Part shown: piece after piece, positions 39,001 through 48,000 of the stretch
Numbering within the stretch: position 1 is the first letter of the stretch
Layout of the letters: every line of letters begins with the position of its first letter
Assembly (NCBI GenBank): GCA_050253415.1
Contig: JBFWJC010000002.1
Coordinates: forward strand, 224,001-288,000
Reading direction: 5' to 3'
Length of the DNA: 64,000 bases
From: Pedobacter sp.
GTDB taxonomy: Bacteria; Desulfobacterota; Desulfuromonadia; Desulfuromonadales; Syntrophotaleaceae
Program-made: the position numbers

Positions 39001-42000
39001 GAAACTCAAAAAACAGGAGTGGGAAATGAGTGATATGATCAAAAATGTTTTCATAAGCCATCACCATAAAGATGATTCTAGTGTTGATGGTCTTACTGGT
39101 ATGCTTTCTGGCAAGGGATATCTTTTGAGGAATAGCTCTATTAGAGTTAAACCCAACAACCAAGTCCGACTTGATCAAAAAAAAGTTAGCGACCGCACAA
39201 TAGAGCGCCTTCTCAGGATGAAAATGAAGTGGGCTGGTCAATTAATTGTTGTTATTGGCAAAGAGACGCATAAAAGACCATGGGTGGATTGGGAAATTAA
39301 AGTTGCCCATCGACTTGGAAAGCCAATTATTGGTGTTTACGAAAACGGGCTAAAAGACGAGGTAGAAATTCCTGAAAATTTAAAGAATTATGCAACCTCA
39401 ATCGTTGGTTGGAGGTCTGAATCTATAATAAGTGCACTAAATGGTGAGGGTCAATTCCTAAACCCTGATGGGTCACCCTGTCAGAAAAAGGACGGGGGCT
39501 ATGTAACATGTTGATTGAACAAGACTCTTATTTGTATGCATATTCAATAACTAGAGACTTTGGCTTTGCGCCAAATCCGTTTCATGGCATCTGTACGCTG
39601 GCTACGTGTAAACCAGGTATCCGTAAAAGTGCTAATGTCGGGGACTGGGTCTTGGGTGTTGGAGGCAGCAAAATGCGGGACGCATCAAGGAAGTGTATAC
39701 TTCTTATGAAAATTACAAAGAAAATAAGCTTCCAAGAATATTGGGAAGATCCCAGTTACTCAATTAAAAAGTCTCTGCGCAACGGCAGTCGGGTTCGAAT
39801 GCTAGGCGACAACATTTACCACAAAGAGAGTAACGCGAATTGGGTTCAAGAAGACTCTCATCATAGTTGTCCGGATGGGACCATAAACCATGTAAATTTG
39901 GCTCGAGATACTAAGTCTGATAACGTTTTAATTTCAAATTATTTCCTGTATTTCGGTGATGCCGCAATCCCGCTTGATTTGCACTCAATTGGATATCATC
40001 GTATACGGGACTTCAAAAAGATCAAACTAACTTTAGGCAACAAGGGTAGAAACTTAATTGAGTCAGTTGTAAATGCACATCGCGGAAAGTTGAATATGGT
40101 AATTTCAGACCCCTGTCAGTTCAAGGATTCCCATAAACGAGTTGACCAAGCTACCGGAAAAATTTCATAGGAGGTAAAGATTTGTCAACCGTTCTCAGAA
40201 AATTTTCATTTCACACTTTAAAGATGATGGTGATGAAGTCGAAGCATTTACCAACTACTTCGCCAACACGCATTCCGTCTTTATTCCAAAGGTCTTGGAG
40301 GTGAATGACAATGATGATTTCATAAACAGAGACGACAAAGACTACGTCATGAGTCGCATCCGTGAGAAGTACTTGCAGGACAGCACAGAGACTATCGTCC
40401 TTTTAGGTAGTTGTACCCACAGCAGACGTTATGTTGACTTGGAGGTCAAAAGTTCACTCAGGGTCGGCCATTTCATTCCCAATGGCCTCATGGGGATTGC
40501 TCTTCCAAGTCGAAACAATCTTGCCCATTTGTCGCCAAGGCTTAAGGCTAATTGGAACTCTGACCATCACAACTGCTATTCTAGGTATTTGTCTTATCCA
40601 GGCTCTCCTGTTGAACTTGTAAGTTGGATCGAGGACGCCTATCTTGCGAGGACATCGTGTGCGCATTTGATTGCAAACACAAAAGATATGATGAGAAACA
40701 AAGGTAAGTGTAAAATTTGCGGGGTGACACACTAATGCTTGCTCGATATCAACCACCACTGGCTGTTCACTTTGTTTGGCATCCATCAGACAAGGATTCA
40801 GTTGACCCAATTCTTGGGAGTGTCTTCAAGTATTTTTCGAGAGATGTTGATCGGCCGTTTTCACGGAACCTGAATATCCCCTTGTTTCTGTATAGCTCCA
40901 ACTACCCGACAATTGGGCCGAGCGATTTCCCCCAGGAGCTCGCAACGCGAAATGTCCTATTCATTTTTACTAGCATTAATACAAGAGGGTATGACTCATG
41001 GAACGACTACATTCGGAAGCTTCCGTGTTCAGACCTGTTGAGGGTTGTCCCGGTGGCCTTAAGCCATGAAGGGCTTCGGCATGGGGGGGAGGGAATTCTC
41101 AAGGGTCTCAATTTTATCCGGGCATTTGAATGGCCCGAGAAGTCTATGCCACAACATGCATTCCTCGCCATGGCGCATGAGGTTTACCGCCATGGATTTG
41201 TTGAAATCGAAGAGGGTGACAAAGGCAAGTCGTCATCCATTAAAATTTTCCTTAGCCATGCAAAAAACGGGGACACTGGTCGCCTTCATGCAGAATCCAT
41301 CAAGCGCTTTATTGAGAACACGAACATCTCTCACTTTTTTGACGCGACAGAGATATCGCCGGGGTTCAAGTTTGATGATGAGATAATTGAGCACATCAAA
41401 GAGTCAACGGTTGTGGCAATTAGTAGCGATGCCTATTCCTCTCGATATTGGTGTCAGAGAGAAATCTTGTGCGCCAAAGAGTTTCACAAGCCAATGATAG
41501 CTGTTGACTGCTTGGAGGATTATGAAGACAGGATTTTTCCAGCCGGGTCAAATGTGCCATGCGTTCATGTGTCGCCGGAATCACCAATCAGCGAATCTGA
41601 CATCTTAAGAGTTCTCACCGCTGCAATTTTGGAAACTATTCGACATCACCATGCTCTTAAGTCGCTTGAGCACTATCAGTCCAGAGGGTGGATTGGTAAT
41701 GATTGCGTCCTTGTCTCTCGGCCTCCAGAAATTCGCCAAATTCTCGCGCTGAAGGAGGGGGGGGGTAGCCAGATTTGCTACCCAGAGCCCCCGATATATT
41801 CTGAGGAAGCAGATTGGCATCGTCAGCTTGAAATTGATACTTTCACTCCGCTTTGGAGTAGGGCTGAAAATCTCTCTTTTAGAGGCTTGCGAGTCGGCAT
41901 TTCCATATCAGATGTTACTAGTGAGGGATTTAGTGATAATCATCTTCCTGCAAGTCAATCAACAAGACTGGCTCAAGATCTTGCACGACATCTTCTTGCC

Positions 42001-45000: not shown

Positions 45001-48000
45001 CATCAACCCTCGGTGTCGTTGATGTAGCGTTTTCTGGTGGTGAGCCGTTGTTGTGGCAGGGGCTAACCGATGTGGTATCTCTCTCCTCCCATTTAGGGAT
45101 GAATGTTTCTTTGTATACCACTGGTAATGTTGACAGTAATGAATTAATTTTTTCAAGCTTAAAGTCAGCGGGGCTTGGTCGAGTCATGTTCAGTCTTTTT
45201 GGTGAGAATGCCAAGCTGCATGAGACAGTAACAAGGGTGAAAGGAAGTTATGAAGTTACTCTGGCAGCGATCAAGAAATGTATCGATTTTGACTTTGAGG
45301 TTGAACTTCATTTTGTACCGCTATCGGATAATTATTTAAGTTTAAGGAAAATTGCAGAGTTAGGAAAAGTGCTTGGTGTGAGTCGTTTGAGTGTTCTTAG
45401 GTTAGTTCCGCAAGGGCGTTGTGAGCTAAATGGCGTCAAGGCTTTAACAAAATCTCAAAACCTTGATTTGCGGAGATTGATAATTGGGCTTCGAGATCAG
45501 GGTTACGAGATCCGCACTGGCTCCCCCTTTAATGCCTTGATGTTGAGGGAAAAGCCACAATGCTGTTCAGGGATAGACAGATTGACAGTGTCTCCAGATT
45601 TAAAAATTTCCCCATGCGACGCCTTTAAACAAGTATCCTGTCAGTCGTTGGGTGTTGGAGATGAATACTCCTCATTGAATGGCAACACGCTCACAGAGTG
45701 TTGGGAAAAATCTCCATACCTTCAGCTTATTCGTAATTATTTGACAACACCCTTTGCAAATATATGTGCTGTTTGCCCCTCATTGGAAAACTGCCTTTCT
45801 GGATGTGTTGCCCAAAAATTTCATGCTTATGGAAATTTAGCTAAATGTCCAGATCCAATGTGTTTAATGTAATTCGCTCTTGCCTATCAACAACGGGCAC
45901 CAAGTTAAACAATCCGTTTATTCAATGAGGGGATCGGGGCCGGATCTTTTCGCGAACAATCTCAAGGATATCCATTATAAGTAAAGAAAAGCCGGAAGAC
46001 AGTCTTCCTGATTGGCTAGCTGATTAGCTAGGGTCGGACCAAGGTAAGCAACTGATATTCCACAGAAATCATTGAAAAACACCGCCAAAAACAGGCTTAT
46101 AAGCCCCTTTTTGGGGTCAAAATGCGCCGGTTTAAGATATTTGGGGGCAATGACGTCAGTCATTGCCCCTTTTCGACAATGAAAATATACTTTTCTTGGC
46201 TCAATGTCCCAAATGCGAGGAATACTTGACCAGTTTTCGAATGGATTTCAGTACGGACATTCCTTCACCAAGATCGTGCTGCAAATCCTTGCTTGCGGCA
46301 GTATGTTTTTCGATATACGGGTGGCCGGAACCATAGATTGCCTGAACCAGATCTTTGACCGCATCGCAAAACAGGGCAATGTCCCGGTTTTCCGTGCTAG
46401 GGGAGCGGCGGGGACGTTGCTCAGTTGTTGACTAAGTCTGAACGTATCCTGGATGGAATCGTCTTGCAGGAGACGGAATTGCGATAAATTTGCCCCAAAA
46501 TTCAGCAATTACCGTCGATTTGGGCCACCCTTCGTCGCACTTGACGCTCAATCGTTAGGATCGGGGGCGATCTCGGTGGGGCCTTTGATCAACACGCCCC
46601 ACGCTCCAGGGCTGAGATCCGCCGCGTTGGCTTCATCGGTGTCGACGTGCATATCCAGCACGTAGCTCTCTTTGACACGTACGAGCACGTCATCAAAAAT
46701 GATCCCCCGCTTGCCGCCCACACGCACCATGACCCATTGCCTATCTTTGACACCCAAGCGCTCTGCATCGGCCGGGGTCATATGGATATGTCGTGCCGCC
46801 TGGATCACACCTTTTTCAAGCACGACGACGCCTTGAGGGCCTTCGAGACGAATGCCAGGTGTATCCTCGAGCTTGCCCGAAGCGCGGATCGGTGCGTCGA
46901 CACCGAGCTTGAACTCGTCGGTGCGCGATATTTCAAGCTGCGTCTCCTGGCGCTCGGGGCCAAGGACGCGTACGCGCTCGATGCAACCTTTGGGGCCGCA
47001 GATGGTGACCGTCTCTTCGCAGGCGAATTGTCCTGGCTGACTTAATGCCTTGGCGGGCGTAAGCTGATGGCCGGAGCCAAAAAGTGCCTCGACATGTTGG
47101 CGGCAGAGATGAACGTGGCGCATGCTGGCGCTGATGGGGATGCGGAGTTCTTCACTCATCGATGGACTTTTCTCCAAGATTCGCAAAAGGTGGGGTGTTG
47201 ACTGGAAATAGCTTTGCAGGCGCCTGAAGCGGGCGGTGATCAGCGCCGACGTCTGTGCCTTCGAACTTACCATCCCCTCATTCGGCCGGTCAACAAAGAA
47301 TCCCCCGCGTATGGCTTGGACTAAGGCCAGCAAGGAAGGGGTGATTGGGTCTGACCAAGGTAAACAACTGATATTTCTCCGAAATTATTGAAAAACACCG
47401 CCAAAAACAGGCTTGTAAGCCCCATTTCGGGGTCAAAATGCGCCGGTTTAAGATATTTGGGTGGCAATGTCCCGGCCCGCATTTCTTCCCGGGCTTTCAC
47501 AAACCATGTTGCTCTGGTCAATGAGCAAGTCGATTTTTTGAAGCATTTTGCTACCATCTATAATTGCCTCTGCACCTGTTGCAGAAAATTCGTGGCGCAG
47601 ACAACAGCAGCGATCTATTGAAAATACAGTCATTTGCATCGTTTCCCTTCCATTGTTTTCATTTCGGTTATGCTTGCAGACTAGACCTGCTGCACCTTGG
47701 ATAGCAAATATCCCCACCATTTGACTCATTGTAAAAAAATCATTTACAATTGCCGCCTTAATGCCTACAGGTTTGGTTCACTATTTTGAACTCAATGCAC
47801 GAAATGGGGACAATGAATATCTATACGATCCAGTTTGGGCTGTATCTCGTGCTGATGCTCGGTATCGGCTATTATTCCATGAAAAAGACCAGCAACAACG
47901 AGGACTTCCTTATCGGAGGGCGTACTCTCGGGCCTGTCACTACCGCCATCAGCGCCGGCGCTTCCGATATGTCCAGTTGGCTTTTGCTCGGTTTGCCTGG

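Follow-up and report, generated by a model that had tools for sequence, protein, structure and literature searches.

The low-G+C gene block in the Pedobacter sp. window (64,000 nucleotides, positions 224,001 to 288,000 of contig JBFWJC010000002.1, assembly GCA_050253415.1) is very probably a defence island of the DS-4 family. We slightly favour reading the whole block as one horizontally acquired mosaic anti-phage island, with the working proposed below, in which three modules are combined: a ThsB-Nmad2 core (M1), a cassette of TIR and SLOG genes (M2), and a pyrimidine-modification module (M3).

G+C was 0.32-0.48 over about 38.5-46.5 kb of the window and 0.52-0.61 on either side. The six genes that the genome-wide survey's note had described here, all on the plus strand, were reproduced with their positions and domains in Pfam and PADLOC searches (Table 1). 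The gap upstream of the kinase gene is 347 nt, as first described, if that gene starts at ATG, and 341 nt if it starts at TTG. The drop in G+C falls inside the DUF2726 gene at the left edge, and a DUF2726 gene likewise lies upstream of ThsB-Nmad2 in the related locus L055; it is uncertain whether this gene belongs to the island. The Logan contig of the probable source run was identical to the window over 39000-46000 and is not independent of it.

Table 1. Genes of the island and its left edge, in window coordinates.
Feature	Position	Strand	Matches
DUF2726 + topoisomerase-type zinc-ribbon protein, left edge	38012..38812	+	Pfam DUF2726 3.1e-36
ThsB-type TIR protein, 162 aa	39026..39514	+	Pfam ThsB_TIR 2.7e-19; PADLOC ThsB1 2.3e-62
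Nmad2 protein, 220 aa	39508..40170	+	Pfam Nmad2 9.4e-61
Second small ThsB-type TIR	40178..40735 (open frame); 40295-40735 (from sole canonical start)	+	ThsB_TIR 4.5e-11
TIR-SLOG fusion, 682 aa from ATG	40735..42783	+	TIR_2 1.6e-8; LD_cluster2 2.5e-59
Kinase-HMUDK_hel fusion	43125 (or 43131)..44828	+	Thymidylate_kin 7.7e-18; HMUDK_hel 2.4e-110
SPASM-class radical-SAM enzyme, 341 aa	44847..45872	+	Radical_SAM 1.1e-16; PADLOC pVip 4.8e-13

Kinship with the E. coli system DS-4

DS-4 (working name NTTI) is a five-gene E. coli system from the DefensePredictor paper (DeWeirdt, Mahoney & Laub, Science 2026, PMC13092281). Its genes code for a TS-like protein (361 aa), a dNMP kinase (185 aa), an HMUDK_hel protein (340 aa), a TIR protein (163 aa), and Nmad2 (220 aa), and were assayed without any SLOG gene. 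The system is marked 'replicated 1' in Table S8, and Table S7 gives a -log(EOP) of 0.93 with smaller plaques against Lambda, a small recorded effect of less than 10-fold on one phage (PMC13092281). The ThsB and Nmad2 of an E. coli copy were 67 and 63% identical to the window proteins. The two systems share a ThsB-type TIR of 162-163 aa directly before a 220-aa Nmad2, with a 7-nt overlap, and both encode HMUDK_hel and a nucleotide kinase within one operon. They differ in that the window has no TS-like gene, and in that HMUDK_hel is joined there to a dTMP-kinase-like domain, whereas DS-4 has a separate T4-type dNMP kinase. Three further genes occur in the window, for a SPASM radical-SAM enzyme, a TIR-SLOG fusion, and another small TIR that is probably defective. 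The E. coli copy sits in an ICE-like region, and the context of the relatives includes type I R-M, BREX, and Tn7 genes, RT-TIR, and a CBASS lipase.

The ThsB-Nmad2 pair

For the related loci, at least 584 metagenome matches were narrowed to the 80 nearest; chosen in this way, they are close kin and not independent. In the window, the start of Nmad2 overlaps the stop of ThsB by 7 nt. Among these closest of at least 584 matches, ThsB immediately preceded Nmad2 in the same orientation in 73 of the 77 loci with an upstream ORF, and the identical 7-nt overlap was found in 40 of 69. ThsB and Nmad2 co-varied in their identity to the window proteins (Spearman 0.92, n = 20). Gene order and overlap support a conserved, translationally coupled pair. 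The survey's note had proposed the conserved pairing as a new point; its novelty does not hold, since the two are genes 4 and 5 of DS-4 (PMC13092281).

In profile comparison with the PDB, ThsB matched ThsB1 (9b7d, 5.2e-11; 6lhy, 6.3e-11). E90 and C162 were invariant in 26 of 26 sequences, the catalytic-type Glu is retained in the motif W-V-x-W-E, and the C-terminal residue was Cys in 72 of 73 sequences; this near-invariant terminal Cys is new here. This TIR is by sequence a ThsB as in type I Thoeris (ThsB + ThsA, SIR2-SLOG), whose logic of one effector with both a SLOG sensor and an NAD+-consuming domain could apply to the TIR-SLOG fusion. However, the window lacks a SIR2 domain, PADLOC gave no match to ThsA, and the TIR is paired with a PUA-like partner that it is predicted to bind, unlike the type I protein.

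The AF2 model of Nmad2 (pLDDT 82.4, pTM 0.83) reproduced the PUA-like fold that had been suggested. All top 21 rows of the VIA fold comparison were of YTH/ASCH/EVE/McrB-N types, with a best Z of 8.2; a Z of about 8 is within reach of unrelated models by the tool's own note, and the Foldseek E was above 0.001. That Nmad2 models as a PUA-like fold is new here. Nmad2 also has many invariant Cys, His, Asp, and Glu residues, which would suit an enzyme no less than a reader. Because the Nmad2 of the window had no match among 50,697 phage records, it would lie outside the known phage pathways.

In complex prediction, ThsB-Nmad2 scored 0.90 against 0.56 for the best control; in calibration, 116 of 157 solved complexes attained that mark, as did 2 of 215 mismatched pairs. 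The 0.56 control kept Nmad2 and swapped ThsB for another protein, which counts against binding. Runs agreed in at least 93% of contacts, with a partner pLDDT of at least 88. The predicted interface comprises residues 95-100, 119-126, 140-144, and 151-162 of ThsB and 15-27, 33-35, 82-98, 116-122, 127-133, and 196-209 of Nmad2, the latter stretches containing the invariant RDFGF, TCK, and DSHHS motifs. The ThsB tail is predicted to dock onto a conserved surface of Nmad2, a further new point, and it is likely that the two proteins form a complex. A partial parallel is the ancillary conjugation of signalling enzymes, in which Cap2/Cap3 and Cap9/10/11 act with CD-NTases and some ThsB proteins (10.64898/2025.12.03.692087). 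Here too, a partner from a nucleobase-modification pathway would, by prediction, hold a conserved C-terminal TIR tail; unlike the tails described there, it ends in Cys and not Gly, the partner is PUA-like, and the island has no E1/E2, QueC, or TGT homologue. Conjugation of the ThsB tail in the island is conjecture.

The kinase-HMUDK_hel and radical-SAM genes

The kinase domain matched thymidylate kinases in the PDB at 3e-9 and the NCBIfam dTMP kinase model at 62.9 bits, under the cut-off of 83.25. The HMUDK_hel domain model (pLDDT 92.3) was closest in VIA to QNG1 (Z 10.5) and to gp46, a phage 5-PmdU glycinyltransferase (Z 10.3), followed by HhH glycosylases, with a Foldseek E above 0.001; HMUDK_hel models as an HhH-glycosylase fold, which is also new here. 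The radical-SAM enzyme has a CxxxCxxC motif readable in the translation and aligned end to end with NCBIfam PqqE (106 bits), MftC, and AhbD, all far under their cut-offs. It has orthologues in L057 (44% identity), L049 (41%), and L053 (48%, partial), and SPASM Pfam matches occurred in L019, L058, and L049.

It had been suggested that the kinase/radical-SAM pair may be separate, which is not likely. HMUDK_hel, a component of DS-4, was the commonest companion of the ThsB-Nmad2 pair, found within 6 kb in 35 of 82 loci, and the same loci (closest of at least 584 matches) had any kinase in 42, MazG_C in 33, a UDG-like gene in 18, and HMUDK_hel or a UDG-like gene in 53. Where at least 5 kb was available on both sides of the pair (19 loci), 14 loci had a glycosylase-fold gene and 13 a kinase. 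Radical-SAM orthologues also occur in L057 and L053, which have the closest TIR-SLOG relatives, with the genes arranged differently. M1 is recurrently linked to HMUDK_hel, nucleotide kinases, and dU/5-hmdU-type enzymes (TS-like, MazG-MazG_C, dCTP-deaminase-like, UDG-like, radical SAM), and the gene sets stay while the order shifts, for example from DCD, HMUDK_hel, rSAM, ThsB, Nmad2, TIR-SLOG in L057 to Kin-HMUDK_hel, TS, ThsB, Nmad2, TIR-SLOG in L048. M3 probably works with M1.

The phage thymidine-hypermodification set includes 5-HMUDK, aGPT-Pplase, dUMP hydroxymethylase, and a radical-SAM isomerase (PMC5889632; PMC8989533). SP10 gp186, a 5-hmdU DNA kinase that adjoins a dUMP hydroxymethylase, likewise has a P-loop kinase followed by HMUDK_hel; the HMUDK_hel model is near the phage glycinyltransferase, and related loci have TS-like and kinase genes. 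In contrast, the window kinase is Thymidylate_kin and not HMUDK_HMUD1, its radical-SAM enzyme belongs to the SPASM class and that of phage M6 (gp53) is photolyase-like, the host is a bacterium, and the phage pathway as described contains neither TIR nor Nmad2. These likenesses raise the reading of a self-marking, R-M-like system, in which a hypermodified thymidine or 5-hmdU derivative would be put into the DNA of the element or host, Nmad2 would read the modification state, and the TIR proteins would punish DNA without it. The accessory genes (dCTP-deaminase-like, TS-like, dNMP kinase, MazG, kinase + HMUDK_hel, radical SAM) do mirror phage hypermodification, PUA-like domains of solved restriction enzymes that appeared in the Nmad2 fold comparison (VcaM4I, McrB-N, and PD-T4-3) read 5mC or 5hmC, and an Mrr-type endonuclease gene follows Nmad2 in E. 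coli. However, the set has no DNA polymerase and no base-exclusion logic, gene content is highly variable, with many loci holding just MazG-MazG_C and a UDG-like gene and the window lacking the TS-like one, and the window's Nmad2 is absent from the phage records searched. Lambda DNA is not known to carry a hypermodified-thymidine/5-hmdU-type modification. It was Lambda on which DS-4 acted (PMC13092281). Self-marking is thus very improbable.

The TIR-SLOG cassette and the proposed working of the island

The second small TIR frame begins 7 nt after the Nmad2 stop, and the small TIR stop overlaps the TIR-SLOG start (TAATG). An open frame of 185 codons holds its entire TIR domain: ThsB_TIR profile positions 1-99 match window 40205-40516, and the called ORF 40295-40735 matches positions 39-99 only. 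No ATG, GTG, or TTG occurs between the TAA at 40175-40177 and 40295, 39 codons in, so no canonical start precedes the first strand, and the most conserved motif, W-x-E-I, reads L-E-V in the window. Relatives in L015, L022, L028, and L020 are full-length (181-195 aa), with 72% identity to the L015 gene (195 aa). Because its sole canonical start is 40295, the gene is probably 5'-defective; the TIR domain reported earlier is wholly encoded, but the gene does not appear intact. The TIR-SLOG protein has a conserved N-terminal domain (172 aa, no Pfam match), then TIR_2, then SLOG cluster 2; all 20 sequences compared share E243 and the Gly-rich SLOG motifs. Catalytic residues are retained in both ThsB (E90) and TIR-SLOG (E243, alongside the SLOG glycine motifs). 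By its domains, M2 is a separate cassette of several TIRs and SLOG cluster 2.

The TIR/SLOG part had been assigned to type III Thoeris, which likewise combines several TIR proteins with a SLOG-domain protein and directly adjoins ThsB-Nmad2 in other loci. This was not borne out by the NCBIfam models: the window had no ThcA match and reached 19.7 bits for ThcB4 against a cut-off of 220, although genuine ThcA (247 bits) and ThcB4 (465 bits) adjoin the pair in L025 and L059. ThcA belongs to SLOG cluster 3 (184 positions), and ThcB4 forms a TIR family of its own (375 positions); in the window, which stays under both cut-offs, SLOG cluster 2 is fused to TIR. A type III island that recruited Nmad2 as a modified-base reader, with the kinase and radical-SAM genes possibly separate, fits the reproduced PUA-like fold but is very improbable, since the constant partners of Nmad2 are ThsB and HMUDK_hel/kinases and not SLOG (LD_cluster2 in 25 of 82 loci, closest of at least 584 matches), and the pair works in DS-4 without SLOG (PMC13092281).

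A stronger alternative, possible though unlikely, is that the defence island houses two or three systems that act independently as mere neighbours. One would be a DS-4-like unit of ThsB, Nmad2, kinase-HMUDK_hel, and radical SAM. Beside it would stand a Thoeris-like cassette complete in itself, with the small TIR as signal maker and TIR-SLOG cluster 2 as NAD+-depleting effector, crippled here by the defective small TIR. Consistent with this, TIR-SLOG and Nmad2 identities to the window proteins were not congruent (Spearman 0.22, n = 21): Nmad2 proteins of just 50-51% identity adjoin the TIR-SLOGs most similar to that of the window (74%). A homologous cassette is split and on the opposite strand in E. 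coli, L072, L079, and L089, that beside DS-4 in E. coli comprising two ThsB_TIR genes, a TIR_2 gene, and an LD_cluster2 gene. Moreover, true type III Thoeris occupies the same neighbouring place in 8 loci, which looks like defence-island clustering, and the recorded DS-4 assay contained no SLOG genes (PMC13092281). The 341-nt gap between M2 and M3 also counts against a single system; promoter and terminator scans of the block gave no indication for or against separation across it. On the other side, where TIR and SLOG are fused, the gene in most cases comes right after Nmad2 in the same orientation, without another small TIR (e.g., L016, L018, L021, L029, L030, L033, L034, L048, L053, L057), so that ThsB would be the only candidate signal maker in such loci. 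Of the 82 loci (closest of at least 584 matches), 33 had a SLOG module of one kind or the other no more than 6 kb away, which is high for chance neighbours, and the tight spacing from Nmad2 through the small TIR to TIR-SLOG also speaks for linkage. That M2 works with M1, and not beside it, is plausible, but we do not quite favour it.

For the single mosaic island, the core would be ThsB and Nmad2, co-translated and probably bound together, joined by M2 (the 5'-defective small TIR and the TIR-SLOG fusion) and M3 (a dTMP-kinase-like domain fused to HMUDK_hel, and the SPASM radical-SAM enzyme). The full chain from M3 through Nmad2 and ThsB to TIR-SLOG is doubtful as a whole. M3 would bind or flip a hydroxymethyl-type 5-substituted uracil, as nucleotide or DNA base, and phosphorylate or further transform it. 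The PUA-like pocket of Nmad2, which would normally hold the C-terminal Cys tail of ThsB, may read the M3 product or the modified base of an invader and so switch ThsB on. ThsB would then cleave NAD+ to an ADP-ribose-derived signal, and the SLOG domain of TIR-SLOG may bind this signal, whereupon its TIR domain would deplete NAD+ and lead to abortive infection.

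Layout of the island

The six genes of the island all lie on the forward strand, in a segment with a G+C content of 0.32-0.48 (about 38.5-46.5 kb) against 0.52-0.61 on either side. All domains named in the genome-wide survey's note were recovered with Pfam and PADLOC. In the whole genome, Nmad2 and HMUDK_hel matched once each and ThsB_TIR twice, and every copy was inside the island. The flanking genes are ordinary, and code for a PAS/GAF histidine kinase, a phosphate propanoyltransferase, and a sodium:solute symporter.

Positions of the island genes and neighbouring features, counted along the window
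Feature	Position	Strand	Remarks
DUF2726 and topoisomerase-type zinc-ribbon gene	38012-38812		left edge of the island
ThsB-type TIR	39026-39514	+	Pfam, PADLOC
Nmad2	39508-40170	+	Pfam; start overlaps ThsB stop by 7 nt
Second small TIR		+	read as 5'-defective
TIR_2 and SLOG cluster 2 fusion (TIR-SLOG), 682 aa	40735-42783	+	ATG overlaps preceding stop as TAATG
Conserved N-terminal domain of TIR-SLOG, residues 1-172	40735-41250		no Pfam family
Thymidylate_kin followed by HMUDK_hel	43125-44828	+	Pfam
Radical-SAM enzyme	44847-45872	+	18 nt downstream of the kinase gene
115-nt sequence, first copy	46031-46145		right of the island
Palindrome	46085-46114		inside the first 115-nt copy
115-nt sequence, second copy	47347-47461		92% identity to the first copy

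In the related locus L055, ThsB-Nmad2 is likewise preceded by a DUF2726 gene. The two copies of the 115-nt sequence lie on either side of the phosphate propanoyltransferase gene. No tRNA genes were found between 30 and 52 kb of the window, and no convincing direct repeats bounding the island were detected. Promoter and terminator scans were uninformative because they gave fewer sites than the shuffled controls. In the sequencing-run search, only the probable source run covered the whole island, and no RNA run containing it was listed.

The open frame of the second small TIR (185 codons) matched positions 1-99 of the ThsB_TIR profile. A TAA is located seven codons upstream of K-I-F-I-S-H, which forms the first strand; from this stop to position 40295, the frame offers no ATG, GTG, or TTG start. 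There is a well-spaced TTG behind GGAGG, but it is out of frame, and the A4T4 run, a candidate site for a programmed frameshift from the out-of-frame TTG at 40182 into the second TIR, is not a standard slippery heptamer. Full-length relatives in four related loci (L015, L022, L028, and L020) are 181-195 aa long with 59-72% identity, and their W-x-E-I motif is L-E-V in the window's protein. Here the Logan contig from the probable source run shows no difference from the window, of which it is not independent. We read the gene, from its sequence, as 5'-defective.

The ThsB-Nmad2 pair and its relation to DS-4

The Nmad2 protein search returned 6,144 clusters at E up to 1e-5. The related loci comprise 4 genome loci and a further 80 from metagenomes, the closest among at least 584 matches (84 in total), and their ORFs were labelled by phmmer against the seed proteins and by Pfam on representatives. 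Of the 84 loci, 82 gave an Nmad2 ORF. In 73 of the 77 loci having an ORF upstream of Nmad2, that ORF was a same-strand ThsB, and the two genes overlapped by 7 nt in 40 of 69 loci. The conserved pairing described in the genome-wide survey's note was thus confirmed, while its newness was not, since the pair is already contained in a published system. This system is DS-4 (NTTI), a validated E. coli system whose five genes are listed in Table S8 of the DefensePredictor paper as TS-like, dNMP kinase, HMUDK_hel, TIR, and Nmad2 (PMC13092281). That paper notes the 5-hmU kinase domain and thymidylate synthase as newly validated in defence, and its main text proposes no mechanism for DS-4 (PMC13092281). 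DS-4 is the only relative tested against phage, with a weak phenotype: the sole NTTI row of Table S7 gives Lambda with a -log(EOP) of 0.93 and smaller plaques (PMC13092281).

The island resembles DS-4 in several respects. The TIR/Nmad2 gene overlap is also present in the DS-4 coordinates (35346 vs 35340), and the window's operon likewise contains HMUDK_hel (2.4e-110, residues 247-523). An E. coli copy of the pair shares 67% identity with the window's ThsB and 63% with its Nmad2. A P-loop kinase is present in the window as well, but it is fused and belongs to the dTMP-kinase family, whereas DS-4 has a separate T4-type dNMP kinase. None of the six island proteins matched Thymidylat_synt. Only 15 of the 82 related loci have a TS-like gene at most 6 kb from Nmad2, so the wider family does not always carry one.

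This E. coli copy of the pair sits within an ICE-like region; of 5,426 complete genomes of the species, 16 contain the pair. Among 401 genomes sampled from the window's phylum, 9 have Nmad2, a count that includes the genome of the window. The distant Nmad2 genes of this sample (loci L010, L012, and L013) have Nmad3 directly downstream and no TIR, so the TIR partnership belongs to the 220-aa Nmad2 subfamily. In one related locus (L049, 11867-12769), ThsB, Nmad2, a radical SAM, and Nmad3 occur together. A tblastn search of 50,697 phage records with one Nmad2 query at E 1e-3, which distant relatives could escape, gave no match. Literature searches for Nmad2 by name, for follow-ups on the DefensePredictor thymidylate synthase and TIR system, and for TIR/hypermodification/PUA defence retrieved nothing relevant. 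Nmad2 may be listed as a putative effector among the 29 putative Thoeris types of the Yirmiya preprint.

By sequence, the small TIR encoded upstream of Nmad2 is a true ThsB. Its profile matched ThsB1 in the PDB at 5.2e-11, PADLOC assigned it to ThsB1 at 2.3e-62, and the W-V-x-W-E glutamate is retained. The HHpred label of the DS-4 protein (Table S8) is nucleoside deoxyribosyltransferase/CMP hydrolase. This identity was not supported, as the PDB profile search found ThsB1, ThsB, and TIR chains and no NDT/MilB chain at E up to 10, although a fold-level relation could escape a sequence search. A C-terminal cysteine was found in 72 of 73 ThsB proteins. It is kept in all 20 loci where the ThsB and Nmad2 genes do not overlap, so the gene overlap alone is not the cause of its conservation.

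The genome-wide survey's note had also assigned Nmad2 a PUA-like fold. This result was reproduced with an AF2 model (pLDDT 82.4): the top 21 rows of an all-against-all VIA search were all PUA-like (YTH, ASCH, EVE, and McrB-N types), and the earlier caution about a Z of about 8 still applies. The matches included YTHDC1 (Z 8.2, rmsd 3.3, 136 residues aligned), EVE (Z 6.7, rmsd 4.2, 138 aligned), ASCH (Z 6.6, rmsd 4.0, 137 aligned), McrB-N (Z 6.3, rmsd 3.8, 134 aligned), and VcaM4I (Z 6.1, rmsd 4.0, 128 aligned). Foldseek found nothing for the same model at E up to 0.001 (best E 0.066), the Nmad2 profile had no real match among PDB sequences, and the best score in the ESM Atlas feature search was 0.77, below lead level.

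The predicted complex of ThsB and Nmad2 scored 0.90. Among solved complexes, 116 of 157 attain this mark, as do 2 of 215 mismatched pairs. The best control, at 0.56, was one that keeps Nmad2, which calls for caution. The runs agreed in at least 93% of contacts, with a partner pLDDT of at least 88, and the predicted interface includes ThsB residues 151-162 and invariant Nmad2 motifs. This model suggests that ThsB and Nmad2 probably bind one another.

The TIR-SLOG cassette and the companion enzymes

The TIR/SLOG part had been regarded as type III Thoeris, and this assignment was not supported: every island protein fell short of the NCBIfam cut-offs for ThcA and ThcB4. ThcA (NF058525, cut-off 110 bits) had no match among the island proteins or in the whole genome, and ThcB4 (NF058526, cut-off 220 bits) gave TIR-SLOG 19.7 bits, through the TIR domain only. 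The ThcA model scored 246.7 and 246.5 bits on proteins of the related loci L025 and L059, and ThcB4 scored 465.2 bits on L025, all beside ThsB-Nmad2. With three TIR domains and a single SLOG cluster 2 domain, the island agrees with the published type III architecture of several TIRs and a SLOG protein. The ThsB TIR is shared with type I Thoeris, and a scan of ten proteins found neither a SIR2 domain nor a PADLOC match for the type I effector ThsA.

In E. coli, a split homologue of TIR-SLOG lies beside DS-4 on the opposite strand, with two ThsB_TIR, one TIR_2, and one LD_cluster2 gene. Such split cassettes (one or two ThsB_TIR, TIR_2, and LD_cluster2) were observed at L105:11753-15656 (the E. 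coli locus) and in L072, L079, and L089, and they seem to represent a Thoeris-like system without a name, separate from NCBIfam type III. The TIR glutamate and the SLOG glycine motifs were kept in 20 of 20 TIR-SLOG sequences. In the N-terminal domain of TIR-SLOG, D19, R44, H148, E149, and R152 are invariant among 20 homologues.

Across the related loci, identity to the window's ThsB closely followed identity to its Nmad2 (Spearman 0.92, n=20), whereas that of TIR-SLOG was not tracked by Nmad2 (Spearman 0.22, n=21), so the island is a mosaic. The loci nearest to the window were L015, L022, and L016 for ThsB, Nmad2, and the small TIR, and L053 and L057 for TIR-SLOG and the radical SAM. The main rival to a single system would make the SLOG cassette an independent neighbour, which we consider possible but rather unlikely. 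We regard the block as a single defence island, mosaic in make-up, that belongs to the DS-4 family.

Companions of this family were counted within 6 kb of Nmad2 in 82 loci, many of them on short contigs. They were HMUDK_hel (35 loci), MazG-MazG_C (33), SLOG cluster 2 (25), a UDG-superfamily protein (18), dCTP-deaminase-like (9), ThcA-type SLOG cluster 3 (8), and radical SAM (7), in addition to the TS-like gene. A kinase of any of three kinds was present in 42 loci, and HMUDK_hel or a UDG-like protein in 53. Where each side extended for 5 kb or more (19 loci), a glycosylase-fold gene was found in 14, a kinase in 13, and SLOG in 13. The same gene set is kept while the order shifts: DCD, HMUDK_hel, rSAM, ThsB, Nmad2, TIR-SLOG in L057; HMUDK_hel, rSAM, a 537-aa ORF, ThsB, Nmad2 in L058; and Kin-HMUDK_hel, TS, ThsB, Nmad2, TIR-SLOG in L048. 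Almost all of the companion enzymes handle dU/5-hmdU nucleotides or uracil-type DNA bases. Type I R-M, BREX, Tn7 genes, RT-TIR, and a CBASS lipase were among the defence and mobile neighbours. In addition, an uncharacterised family of about 217-250 aa, absent from the window, lies beside ThsB-Nmad2 and the multi-TIR/SLOG cassette in 19+5 of 82 loci and in E. coli (L004:9281-9934, L002:8667-9410, L105:14928-15656, and about 20 further loci), and has no match in Pfam, NCBIfam, or PHROGs.

The model of the HMUDK_hel domain had a pLDDT of 92.3. Its closest VIA matches were QNG1, a nucleotide glycosylase of queuine salvage (Z 10.5, rmsd 5.7, 234 aligned), and gp46, the 5-PmdU glycinyltransferase of PaMx11 (Z 10.3, rmsd 3.9, 224 aligned), to which the VIA caution for Z below about 13 applies because the fold is helical. 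HhH DNA glycosylases came next, and the top 23 rows all belonged to the HhH DNA-glycosylase superfamily (rank 50, Z 3.3). Foldseek again placed gp46 on top, at E 0.2. The kinase gp186 of phage SP10, used as a control, has the same two-part build, with HMUDK_hel at the C-terminus; however, its N-terminal domain is HMUDK_HMUD1 (2.8e-23), whereas the window's protein, with its dTMP-kinase-like domain, and that of L048 match Thymidylate_kin. A protein of Glutamicibacter phage Montesquieu (L096:2974-3951), annotated as 'alpha-glutamyl/putrescinyl thymine pyrophosphorylase clade 1', is a stand-alone HMUDK_hel member (Pfam 2.1e-46). Since this transferase matches HMUDK_hel in Pfam, the helical domain of the kinases and the transferase clade may be one family.

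The radical SAM matched PADLOC pVip at 4.8e-13 (47 bits). It aligned end to end with SPASM maturases in NCBIfam (PqqE 106 bits, MftC 88 bits), and the SPASM Pfam domain is present in its homologues. On these alignments, it is probably of the SPASM class and not viperin-like.

Possible mechanism and meaning for the family

In the sensing mechanism that we propose, the pyrimidine module would make or mark a 5-substituted uracil, Nmad2 would read this base and free ThsB, and TIR-SLOG would amplify the TIR signal. A quite improbable alternative is that Nmad2 and the pyrimidine enzymes prime the TIR without sensing, by joining a uracil derivative to the terminal cysteine of ThsB. The kinase and the aGPT-Pplase-like HhH domain would then make an activated 5-methylene- or phosphomethyl-uracil nucleotide, with TS-like or SPASM radical-SAM enzymes taking part in some loci, and the ThsB tail would be held in the Nmad2 pocket while its near-invariant C-terminal cysteine is coupled to the base. 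SPASM enzymes commonly act on cysteine or C-terminal peptide residues. We keep priming in consideration for this reason, because ThsB nearly always ends in cysteine, because its tail lies in the predicted interface with the invariant Nmad2 motifs, and because the HMUDK_hel fold is nearest to an enzyme joining an amino acid to 5-PmdU. As a nucleobase-protein conjugation, priming would parallel the one that Cap9/Cap10 are reported to carry out in type IV CBASS (10.64898/2025.12.03.692087), but would derive from the thymidine-hypermodification pathway.

Like many other defence systems validated in recent work, DS-4 has no proposed mechanism. Our comparison makes it a family whose core is constant, namely a ThsB TIR and an Nmad2 modelled as PUA-like, predicted to be bound to each other. 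This core is surrounded by interchangeable uracil and 5-hydroxymethyl-uracil enzymes and often by TIR and SLOG modules. The comparison also sets the SLOG cluster 2 multi-TIR cassette apart from what is named type III Thoeris. Experimental handles are provided by the ThsB tail with its C-terminal cysteine, the pocket residues of Nmad2, and the HhH domain related to phage 5-PmdU transferases and QNG1. Whether by sensing or by priming, phage thymidine-hypermodification chemistry may have been turned by bacteria into an immune sensor, a signal, or a protein-priming device.
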